DNA of 34,731 nt from a virus (Duplodnaviria; Caudoviricetes). How positions within the stretch are numbered: the first letter of the stretch is position 1; each line of letters begins with the position of its first letter. The translations under genes were made by a program, and so were the position numbers. Below, piece after piece: positions 4,069-16,927 of the stretch. The notes under the pieces were generated by a model, which saw only the letters and a program-made list of their open reading frames with translations, was not told the DNA's origin and made no database searches. The DNA lies in the IMG/VR virus record IMGVR_UViG_3300032296_003686, positions 1-34,731 of that record; one strand, given 5' to 3'.

Positions 4069-4107
4069 GCACTCATTCCGCATTCGTCATTCATCATTCC
4101 CCTTCCC

Positions 4108-4578: not shown

Positions 4579-4826
4579 CCTTGCCCGGCGAATGGGCGTG
4601 GTTTCACGCCCTCCTCGCGCGGGCCCTGCCCGGCACCACCCGCGAAGAGCGCGAGTGGCACACCTCCCTCACCGAAGCCCATGAAGCCATCCACGCCGCC
4701 GCCCTCCTCCATGCCGAGCCCGTCATCTGGCCCGATCCCGCCCGCTCCGAAATCGGCCGCGAACTCCGCGCCGCCGCCACCTACATCCGCCAGATCCAGA
4801 CCGAAGGCCTCCCGTGTGATTTGTGA
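4569..4826 (+). CDS. -1 frameshift extension (gpT-like part of gpGT), slippery site GGGAAAC at 4569-4575
   Basis: The -1 frame GGG AAA CTA GCC TTG CCC GGC GAA TGG... stays open to TGA at 4826 and has no ATG start of its own. Confidence 0.75.
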   Translation, partial: GKLALPGEWAWFHALLARALPGTTREEREWHTSLTEAHEAIHAAALLHAEPVIWPDPARSEIGRELRAAATYIRQIQTEGLPCDL

Positions 4827-4929
4827 GACGAACGTCCAAACTCTGCCGACCGAAGGGGCGGCCCAAAAGCAATGAATCAAGAAACGACTACATCCGCCCC
4901 GAAGGTTGGCAGCAGTGCCATGGTTCTGC
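4827..4929 (-). mobile_element. attC-like recombination site A
   Basis: GACGAAC..ACT-CTGCCGACC..GGGGCGG / CCGCCCC..GGTTGGCAG-C-AGT..GTTCTGC, with one extrahelical C at 4913. Confidence 0.75.
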
Positions 4930-5207
4930 CCACTTGTCCGAGCATCTTCCGCAATCACAGGCACGCAGCCGCATGGATGATCCGTATTGGTAGGGCATTG
5001 GATCAATCGAATGTGCCAATATCTCCGCACATCTCACGGCGAGACAACAACGATAACTTCGAGATTGCTCGAAAACTCATCGCCTGCGGAAAACGCATCG
5101 CAGAAAAGTATGGTGATGAAAGCAAGGAATCAAAGCTCCGAGCTAGGCTTCGTGCCGCACTCGCAAGGCAGAACGAAACAAGCCCATCTACGGGCGCAAC
5201 TGAATAA
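4872..5207 (+). CDS. Cassette ORF 1, hypothetical protein
   Basis: 111 aa with lower GC and atypical codons. ATG inside site A, stop inside site B. Confidence 0.65.
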   Translation: MNQETTTSAPKVGSSAMVLPTCPSIFRNHRHAAAWMIRIGRALDQSNVPISPHISRRDNNDNFEIARKLIACGKRIAEKYGDESKESKLRARLRAALARQNETSPSTGATE

Positions 5208-5321
5208 GCGAATGATAACCACTGAAGAATTCAACGCTGTCCTGCAAGAACTGGTCAGCAAGGCCGAAAGTCGCGCTAAAGATCAAGCTGAATGCCCGTT
5301 AGATGCGGCGGCGTGTTCTGT
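5168..5321 (-). mobile_element. attC-like recombination site B
   Basis: GCAGAAC..GCC-CATCTA-CGGGC / GCCCG-T-TAGATG-C-GGC..GTTCTGT, with two extrahelical bases (5299, 5306). Confidence 0.75.
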
Positions 5322-5517
5322 AACCCGTGTCCGCTACATGGTGGACGTGCAGGCCACTAGCGGTCGATGGGACAACGTAGAGGTCCGATACACGGAAACC
5401 GAGGCAAGGGACAAAGAACGCGAATGGAGGGCTTGGCTGAATGAAAACCGCAAAGCATGGAAAGACATTCGCATCGTCAAGGAGCTAACGATTGAGCGGG
5501 TTTTACAGAACGCCTAG
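5212..5517 (+). CDS. Cassette ORF 2, hypothetical protein
   Basis: MITTEEFNAVLQELV...VLQNA*, 101 aa. ATG inside site B, 4 nt after the ORF 1 stop. Confidence 0.65.
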   Translation: MITTEEFNAVLQELVSKAESRAKDQAECPLDAAACSVTRVRYMVDVQATSGRWDNVEVRYTETEARDKEREWRAWLNENRKAWKDIRIVKELTIERVLQNA

Positions 5518-5625
5518 CTCTGGCATCGCTGCCGAGAGTGCCACACCGAACCAACCAGATACCAATATGCCCAACGACATCGAAAACACAGCGGGCAGCG
5601 ATTGCCCAGAAGCGACTTGTTCGGG
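5505..5625 (-). mobile_element. attC-like recombination site C
   Basis: ACAGAAC..GCT-CTGG-CA-TCGCTGCC / GGCAGCGA-T-TG-C-CCAG-A-AGC..GTTCGGG. Confidence 0.75.
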
Positions 5626-5833
5626 GGATGCTCCCGACTTCATCACCGAGCTACGCGAACTCTTGAACCGCCGCAGCATGGAGAACGGCAGCGATACGCC
5701 CGACTTCATCCTCGCCCAATACCTCACTGACTGCCTGCGAGCGTGGAACCGCGCTACAAAACGGCGAGAGGATTGGTATGGGCGCACACCGCAGGAAGTT
5801 TCTTCCCCGAACAAAGAGCTCACCGACCAGTGA
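5567..5833 (+). CDS. Cassette ORF 3, small phage-type hypothetical protein
   Basis: 88 aa containing LLNRRSMENGSDTPDFILAQYL, a motif I recognise from uncharacterised phage proteins. ATG inside site C. Confidence 0.7.
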   Translation: MPNDIENTAGSDCPEATCSGDAPDFITELRELLNRRSMENGSDTPDFILAQYLTDCLRAWNRATKRREDWYGRTPQEVSSPNKELTDQ

Positions 5834-5871
5834 GCCTTAGCGAACGCCGTTCGGTGCAGCGCACGTTCGCC
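5806..5871 (-). mobile_element. attC-like recombination site D (short, terminal)
   Basis: Minus strand reads GGCGAAC GTGC GCT-G-CACCGA...TCGGTG-AGC TCTTT GTTCGGG, a textbook attC layout. Confidence 0.8.
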
Positions 5872-5950
5872 ATTCATTCCTCATTCCTCATTCCTCATTC
5901 TGGTTTCGTCATTCCCGCGCAGCGGGCTGCTTTGACTCCCGCCGCCTTGC

Positions 5951-15693: not shown

Positions 15694-16731
15694 TTATTTC
15701 CACGCCGCGTTGATTTGATCGTCCTGCGGAATGAGGTGCCCGTAGGTGTCCTCGACCACCTCCAGCGTATCGCCGAGCCACTTGGCGACTTTGTAGATCG
15801 ACACGCCTTTGCTCACGAGCAGCGAGGCAAACGTGCGGCGCAGATCGTGAAACGTATACTCAGCCAGGCCGCAGCGATCGAGCAGGCTGTTGAACGACCG
15901 GATGAAATCCGTCCGGTAGCGGCTCTCCCCGTGCCTCTCCGCAGGCCGGAACATGAACGGAATGCCGAGCCCGAACTGCTCCACATACGCATGCAGCTCG
16001 TCGCTCATCGGAATCGTCCGGTTGTCGCGATCCTTGGGCGTGAACGTTTCCGTCGTCTGCACGTGAATGAGCTTGGCCTCCATGTCGAACCAGTTGGTCC
16101 GCGCCTCGATCACCTCATCTTTGCGCAGACCCGCGTGCGCGCCGCAGTAGATGGCGAACTTCAGCTCCGGATCGCTGCAGGCATCCAGGAGCCTGCGCAC
16201 CTGCTCCGGACGCATGAACAGCCGCCGCCGGCGCGGAGGCAGAATCGGCGTCCGGATCTCGGCCGCCAGATTCCGTGTCAGCTTTCCTTTTTCCACCAGC
16301 CACGTCATCCACCACTTCACCTGGTTCAGATAAGCCTCGGCCGTGTAGGCATTCACCTTCGCCGTCGCATCATACCACTGCTGAATCATCCGCTGGGAGA
16401 TGAGGCGCGGCGAGCTGGCGCTGATCGCCTTCGCAAAGGCATGCAGCACATAACCACGCGACTCCATGGTCGCGTGGGAAAGCCCGCGGCGGATCTCGGC
16501 GGCGACATACGCATCGACCTCCGCATCGCTTGCGTCGGCCGCCTCGCGCTTCGCAGGGCCATCCGTGCGACGAATACGCCCCGCCTCCTGGATCGCCTCC
16601 ACGAGGTCCGTGGTGCCGAGAGATTGGCGCACCTGGGCACCACCAGGCACCGGCGTCCACCGCAACCAGAACGACTGGCCACGACGATAGATCCCCTTCG
16701 GAATTTTCAGGCCTGTGCTTTTGGAGCCCAT
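15694..16731 (-). CDS. int: Tyrosine integrase
   Basis: HAGLRKDE (R), FHDLRRTFAS (HxxR), WLGD and TYGH (Y). Start taken at MGSKSTG (16731), downstream of attP. Confidence 0.95.
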   Translation of the reverse strand: MGSKSTGLKIPKGIYRRGQSFWLRWTPVPGGAQVRQSLGTTDLVEAIQEAGRIRRTDGPAKREAADASDAEVDAYVAAEIRRGLSHATMESRGYVLHAFAKAISASSPRLISQRMIQQWYDATAKVNAYTAEAYLNQVKWWMTWLVEKGKLTRNLAAEIRTPILPPRRRRLFMRPEQVRRLLDACSDPELKFAIYCGAHAGLRKDEVIEARTNWFDMEAKLIHVQTTETFTPKDRDNRTIPMSDELHAYVEQFGLGIPFMFRPAERHGESRYRTDFIRSFNSLLDRCGLAEYTFHDLRRTFASLLVSKGVSIYKVAKWLGDTLEVVEDTYGHLIPQDDQINAAWK

Positions 16732-16732
16732 G

Positions 16733-16927
<195 letters not shown>

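Follow-up and report, generated by a model that had tools for sequence, protein, structure and literature searches.

Three probably mobile cassettes with bottom-strand genes, and a resident attC-type end site, in a temperate phage

Cassette arrays that lack an integron integrase gene have been described in phages as CALINs (Qi et al. 2023, PMC9892861; this and the other papers cited are drawn on for the portions covered). The locus studied here shares with them an attC array without intI and small accessory genes, which in the published arrays are often methyltransferases. Bottom-strand genes, starts in the hairpin loop and borrowed stops are not described in the portion of PMC9892861 covered. 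Its array from phage TJE1 is canonical, unlike that of the window, by which we mean the whole 34,731-nt stretch of DNA analysed; its ctTUS972 array looks inverted by eye, has a methyltransferase that ends Asn-Val-stop and was not called by our detector. The annotated methyltransferase start of ctTUS972 (L318 2280-3740, MW202573) is placed behind the GTT box, and the open frame crosses the box. Sedentary chromosomal integron cassettes of Verrucomicrobiota and Planctomycetota have the same site family and unit geometry, but intI is present there, the genes lie on the top strand (43/51), stops are not in excess in the AAC frame and few ATG-initiated ORFs run through the arm. The nearest known frame that appears to borrow a stop across the crossover is ORF-11 of attI1 in class 1 integrons, as presented in the part of PMC8876359 covered: it runs across the crossover point, depends on the following cassette for a stop in phase and couples translation to that cassette. 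ORF-11 differs in being one short peptide in a fixed attI, whereas here each cassette has a cargo gene, the junctions are those of attC sites and the genes run on the opposite strand. SALINs and cassette insertion at GWT (attG) sites (bioRxiv 10.1101/2022.09.11.507474, portion covered) would offer a route to a first attC such as our end site D without attI, although they concern ordinary cassettes in bacterial chromosomes and not inverted phage arrays. No published description of the inverted phage layout was found in a literature search that covered mainly open-access papers. What this window adds is an empty allele of the same phage, an ORF-less resident end site, and apparent leader exchange at the GTT side.

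The ends of the contig share a 123-nt terminal repeat. Terminase, lambda-type portal, head protease, tape measure, ParB-like protein and repressor genes were recognised among the 50 of 196 ORFs scanned; a major capsid protein was not recognised among these 50. Given terminal repeats despite a CheckV completeness estimate of 43%, the circle may miss a part, or the capsid may be divergent. The array is flanked by + strand genes, with the tape measure gene downstream, and its G+C is 0.55 against 0.64 in the remainder of the window. With four attC sites and, as its only tyrosine recombinase match, a protein that is not an IntI, the record, possibly incomplete at 43%, classes as a CALIN; intI is absent from the record, which sets it apart from complete integrons. 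Elsewhere, a tandem 7-nt repeat tract of about 270 nt lies between genes (780-1053), and three families of short intergenic repeats were noted (363, 1534, 12117, 14284, 17196, 18201 and 23447; 17260, 18873, 21045 and 23431; 395, 4277, 18504 and 19374), some copies of which occur in both orientations. The features of the locus are collected in Table 1.

Table 1. Features of the cassette locus and the phage integrase gene; positions are counted from the first nucleotide of the window.
Feature	Position	Strand	Description
Left junction	4827..4833	+	CGAAC in common with 5808-5812, the 5-nt overlap of the empty allele
Site A	4827..4929	+	AAC 4831-33, GTT 4923-25 (4831-4925, 95 nt); unpaired C4913; contains TGA 4873-75 and ATG 4872
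ORF A	4872..5207	+	111 aa: 17-aa leader from site A, then core and Asn at 5172; site B supplies 11-aa tail and TAA; PHROG 23588
Site B	5168..5321	+	AAC 5172-74, GTT 5315-17 (5172-5317, 146 nt); unpaired C5306 and T5300; contains TAA 5205-07 and ATG 5212
ORF B	5212..5517	+	101 aa: 34-aa leader from site B, then core and Asn at 5509; site C supplies tail NA and TAG; no family match
Site C	5505..5625	+	AAC 5509-11, GTT 5619-21 (5509-5621, 113 nt); unpaired A5610, C5605 and T5602; contains TAG 5515-17 and ATG 5567
ORF C	5567..5833	+	88 aa: 17-aa leader from site C, then core and Asn at 5810; site D supplies 7-aa tail and TGA; PHROG 31227
Site D	5806..5871	+	AAC 5810-12, GTT 5865-67 (5810-5867, 58 nt); unpaired C5857; short, ORF-less, without ATG; supplies the last stop (TGA 5831-33)
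Intergenic repeat	5881..5940	+	behind D, followed by GC hairpin and TTTGAC
Phage tyrosine integrase	15694..16851	-	26.6 bits against the IntI cut-off of 265; IntI insertion missing

In all four sites the AAC and GTT triplets close an imperfect hairpin with unpaired spacers of 5-8 nt, and it is the right arm of the + strand that carries the unpaired bases. Since the extrahelical bases of an attC bottom strand stand opposite AAC (PMC5027507, portion covered), the coding strand is by this rule the bottom strand. The original prediction had put the extrahelical bases on the right arm of the + strand and the ORFs on that same strand, which is true for A to D, and its coordinates for the hairpins, the three ATGs, the three Asn codons and the four stops were all reproduced. 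According to the same source, the first extrahelical base of attC is usually a G, the last a T six pairs away, and attC sites measure 57-141 bp. The first unpaired bases of A to D (C, C, A, C) are unlike the usual G, a T occurs only in B and C and at different spacing, and site B slightly exceeds the length range. Detector scores were 10.0 for A, 11.9 for B and 14.4 for C but only 8.5 for D, against a background of two calls with a score of at least 10 in 438 kb of shuffled DNA. As a control, the detector called the bottom strand of two TJE1 sites on minus, the annotated genes being on plus, i.e. canonical. The whole-site folding energies of A, B and C are unremarkable (z of −1.6, −0.4 and −0.5); D has a z of −3.0, but its lowest-energy fold lacks the attC shape. 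The case for attC identity rests on arm geometry and on the junctions described below, not on energy. Beyond AAC, GTT and shape the four sites have little in common, and none of the 20 largest repeat families covers them; a near-identical copy of site A stands first in another array (L036).

ORF-less sites of D type, 51-58 nt long, are found at several loci per genome (the window; L141 339, 9771 and 16049; L036 2801; L163). They always stand last in an array, shortly upstream of TTTGAC. In the five D copies compared there is no common AAC behind D. As a general feature, ORF-less end sites found no support in the survey: 5/18 'last' sites lack an ATG-ORF against 23/86 internal ones, in calls from a detector that misses sites. 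The repeat behind D has further copies at 4074, 6781, 10943 and 14935, none of them with a D. This dispersed intergenic repeat (5896 for the copy behind D; also in the relatives L143-L146) often precedes a GC hairpin and TTTGAC before late genes, and an inverted copy of it forms the left junction of three arrays in the related genomes G001 and G002. Its identification as a host REP element was dropped, with one match, in 1/401 genomes of the phylum.

The three ATGs were proposed to lie inside the site loops, and all three are found between the hairpin arms; likewise each ORF (3/3) runs in frame into the next AAC, which it reads as Asn. Every site does hold a stop in the frame of its AAC, but that of site A is idle here because the preceding gene (4581-4826) ends 4 nt upstream of the AAC. 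The TGA of site A overlaps the ATG as ATGA, and the TAA of site B lies 4 nt upstream of the next ATG. The ATG of ORF C is 49 nt downstream of the TAG, so that only A and B look coupled; at these two sites translational coupling may be supposed from the spacing. The reading phase at GTT is not conserved, in line with the prediction (phase 0 for A, 1 for B and C). In a classical cassette the top strand carries the ORF, which ends ahead of its attC or within it; the layout differs from this, as had been claimed, since the ORFs are on the bottom strand with their predicted starts in their own site. ORFs A, B and C have no Pfam or NCBIfam match. The family of ORF C is a common small phage protein, and a pattern search of viral contigs gave no relative of ORF B.

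An empty allele of the locus was found in runs X2, X3 and X4, from three other studies. In it, position 4828 is joined to 5808, and the 979 nt skipped are the sum of three AAC-to-AAC units (341+337+301). The joints of X3 and X4 have 113 nt on the short side, with no extra letters and with both flanks matching without difference; that of X2 has only 27 nt on the short side. The 5-nt overlap locates the cut only to within CGAAC, and loss and gain both fit. This joint was absent from a further four runs examined (including X6, X7 and X9). Cassette B (5171-5511) occurs with one difference in two other contexts, in X6 and X9, and in X6 it then runs into a different tail. In X7 the left flank is kept up to 4833 and followed by another site; X7 is an RNA run, used for its contigs only and without bearing on expression. 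The relative G002, whose neighbour gene is 93% identical, has D alone at the same locus and two further arrays ending in a D-type site, and in G001, at a different locus, cassette A runs directly into a D-type site and its ORF changes tail behind the Asn. These AAC-to-AAC junctions in contigs and relatives mean that the site travels with the gene behind it and that D stays. As read from the alleles compared, the unit of exchange extends from AAC to the next AAC, i.e. a site plus the DNA behind it, and D remains when A-C are gone. The proposed crossover at the AAC side agrees with the junctions, which fall within CGAAC or at GAAC/AAC, the exact bond not being readable from sequence.

The same boundary is seen in the proteins. 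Searches returned 9 (A), 16 (B) and 76 (C) proteins overall, and homologues were counted only with at least 6/10 identities directly before the Asn. The Asn was present in 8/9 homologues of ORF A, with 8 different tails, in 15/15 of ORF B, with 15 tails, and in 12/18 of ORF C, with 12 tails, one of them the window's own protein; alignment offsets or truncation account for several of the six ORF C misses, and these were left in the count as misses. Among 102 survey ORFs, pairs such as L163/L221 (93% identical) and L173/L218 (92%) differ solely behind the Asn. A C-terminal tail that stays constant whatever the neighbour, which would have spoken against borrowed stops, is thus not what we found: similarity stops at the terminal Asn and the tail follows the neighbour. 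At the other end, ORF C cores 94-97% identical to that of the window (P0030, P0032-P0036) bear unrelated leaders, as do ORF B cores of one subfamily. Such near-identical cores with unrelated leaders indicate that the start module is not fixed to its gene. Two contigs depart from the window sequence just past GTT, at 4926 (X1) and 5624 (X5). The exchanged leaders and these breaks hint at a possible exchange at the second R box; recombination of top-strand attC is a known rare reaction (PMC5027507, portion covered).

To see how far the layout extends, viral and bacterial sites were surveyed. A two-arm pattern yielded 123 of an estimated 150 viral stretches, and a stricter pattern 32 genome loci, 26 of them titled Verrucomicrobiota or Planctomycetota. 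Sites were called at a score of at least 10; nine calls fitting both strands, sites less than 200 nt from a locus end and duplicates were excluded. One IMG/VR contig with a uniform canonical array of 21 sites, L292 with six inverted sites in a bacterial bin, and one metagenome site were set apart. The viral set then comprised 135 sites in 53 loci, window A-C included, and the bacterial set 82 sites; seeding with one pattern and the relatedness of the phages mean that the counts below are not independent events. A stop inside the site was present in 128/135 viral sites in the AAC frame and in 54 and 59 in the other two frames; in bacterial sites the corresponding figures were 33, 40 and 33 of 82. 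The upstream frame was open for 50 codons in 104 (AAC frame), 21 and 32 of the 135 viral sites. An ATG-ORF ran through the right arm in 93/135 viral sites (45 on the other strand) vs 13/82 bacterial ones, and ATGA overlaps occurred in 43/135 vs 2/82.

The strand of each cassette was assigned from amino-acid log-odds. The score had 14 genes of the window as its training set and may favour proteins of phage type. By this score 83/85 viral cassettes are inverted against 8/51 bacterial ones, 43/51 being canonical, without the two set-apart groups; with all rows included the figures are 85/103 and 12/56. The survey of phage contigs that the original prediction had called for thus finds the inverted architecture in nearly all of the viral cassettes so counted. 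Strand calls from the longest ORF (61/103 viral inverted) were abandoned as confounded by antisense shadow frames. Of the 100 loci from a left-arm pattern scan, only L074, L082, L097, L103, L107 and L118 were real; nearly all were fortuitous hits in coding sequence, and the frame counts of that scan were therefore discarded. Among the 85 viral cassettes, 60 enter the next site through Asn and stop there, 19 (about a quarter) have their own stop, five enter out of frame and one is without ORF; in all, 25/85 do not borrow a stop in frame. The idea that each cassette carries its own start and takes its stop from the next attC therefore stands for the majority as regards the stop, but 19 cassettes bring their own and the start module is not gene-fixed. 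In the set-apart canonical array, 17/21 sites have a stop in the AAC frame, indicating that the stop can pre-exist, unused, in host-type sites. That array (L223, L224, L236 and L237, IMGVR_UViG_2836862175_000001) is long and uniform on a contig classed viral, and its sites bear a loop ATGA on the bottom strand, possibly a precursor state. L292 (JADKCY010000019.1), an inverted array of phage type that was binned with Lysobacterales, is likely a prophage or else a phage contig in the wrong bin. L146 (16711-14969, - strand) holds a methyltransferase-like cassette and a multi-gene insert, partly reversed, with a D-type site last.

The same cassettes could be moved by a phage-encoded or other non-IntI recombinase, either the tyrosine integrase of this phage or a distinct hairpin recombinase with a preference for unpaired C. 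A tyrosine recombinase is encoded by the window and by G002 (2/5 records), and unpaired C prevails in viral sites: it is the first unpaired base in 103/135 viral and 51/82 bacterial sites, G being found in three sites beside intI genes. We nevertheless regard this explanation as rather unlikely. The window's integrase falls far short of the IntI cut-off (Table 1) and is missing the insertion that four true IntI proteins show; no PF00589 match was obtained in G004 (75 kb, with a long array) and G001, both incomplete records; and the same site family adjoins host intI. IntI above the cut-off is present in 4/5 genomes with same-family sites, and such a site adjoins intI in 3/4 loci. IntI1 recombined 5/6 phage attC sites tested (PMC9892861, section 3.4). 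As the phage integrase is not an IntI, a host IntI, acting through attC x attC recombination, is most likely the catalyst. Since other samples contain this phage lacking all three units, and contain its cassette genes with different tails, the phage likely reshuffles its accessory genes by means of the host integron enzyme.

It is also conceivable that the cassettes are mobile but the loop starts and borrowed stops incidental, the true starts being at or behind the GTT box. ORF A has a second in-frame ATG at 4920, directly upstream of GTT, where three free homologues begin, and 2/16 ORF B homologues are called from a Met two codons upstream of the box; in addition, the leaders are variable and low in information. 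In contrast, the captured ORF A homologues P0020 and P0021 have Ile or Leu at the position of Met 4920, the Met within the ORF B core is Arg in half of the family, and ATGA overlaps are far more frequent in viral than in bacterial sites. We consider incidental starts unlikely; where neither the GTT box nor the sequence past it offers a Met, the homologues have an open leader upstream, and the starts are likely inside the loops. The three free ORF A homologues end a few codons past the AAC position, and in viral contigs ORF C, too, has many homologues that are ordinary genes; the cargo thus corresponds to a native phage gene from its start almost to its end.

Recombination at short homologies occurs in phages. 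Exchange between similar hairpins by homologous or short-repeat recombination, with no site-specific enzyme involved, would be compatible with the 5-nt overlap seen at the empty allele, but A to D share so little besides AAC, GTT and shape, and the independent junctions fall so uniformly on the same triplet, that we think this very improbable. A misread canonical polarity, with each ORF followed by its own top-strand attC and crossover at the right-hand GTT, is scarcely credible and, on the alleles compared, refuted as the main route by the AAC-to-AAC units: the + strand order of gene, AAC, hairpin and GTT resembles a classical cassette and the X1 and X5 contigs diverge just past GTT, but sites travel with the gene behind them, tails change at AAC, and the same geometry in bacterial arrays and TJE1 has its genes on the opposite strand.

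Taken together, these results make it probable, in our judgement with good confidence, that the array consists of three mobile cassettes and a resident end site in a temperate phage, with AAC junctions and bottom-strand genes, a host IntI as the likely enzyme and starts likely within the hairpins. From established integron biochemistry, the folded coding strand would be cut between A and C of AAC. Cassettes would be excised and inserted in circular form through attC x attC recombination. Any site, D among them, could receive them, so that neither attI nor a phage IntI would be needed. In the alleles and homologues compared, genes cross the next AAC as Asn and receive their tail and stop from whichever site follows. 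The cassettes would be read from the phage late transcript through the tail genes; an AAC-frame stop being present in almost all sites, any cassette order should yield a terminated protein. Where the stop overlaps or lies near the next ATG, a ribosome reading the left arm may unfold the hairpin and reinitiate at the following gene. In a host integron a phage cassette would be antisense to the cassette promoter, and in a phage array a host cassette would be silent, a mismatch that would keep the phage and host gene pools apart.

To our knowledge, how cassettes are born is an open question in integron biology. We tentatively suggest, as a possibility that we still doubt, a cassette pool of the phages' own, in which a hairpin is joined to a native start at the GTT side and a second AAC near the gene end completes the unit; both ends of a site would recombine, leaders and tails would be modular, and cassette birth would be visible in free versus captured copies. 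Free and captured copies of the same gene make cassette origin testable. If our preferred reading of three mobile, bottom-strand cassettes is correct, phages have a working reversed integron cassette system, of which exact filled and empty alleles of one phage stand in public data. The layout would make any cassette order translatable and would account for the oddly variable ends, N- as well as C-terminal, seen in many small phage proteins. It also predicts that phage genomes are edited through the activity of host IntI.
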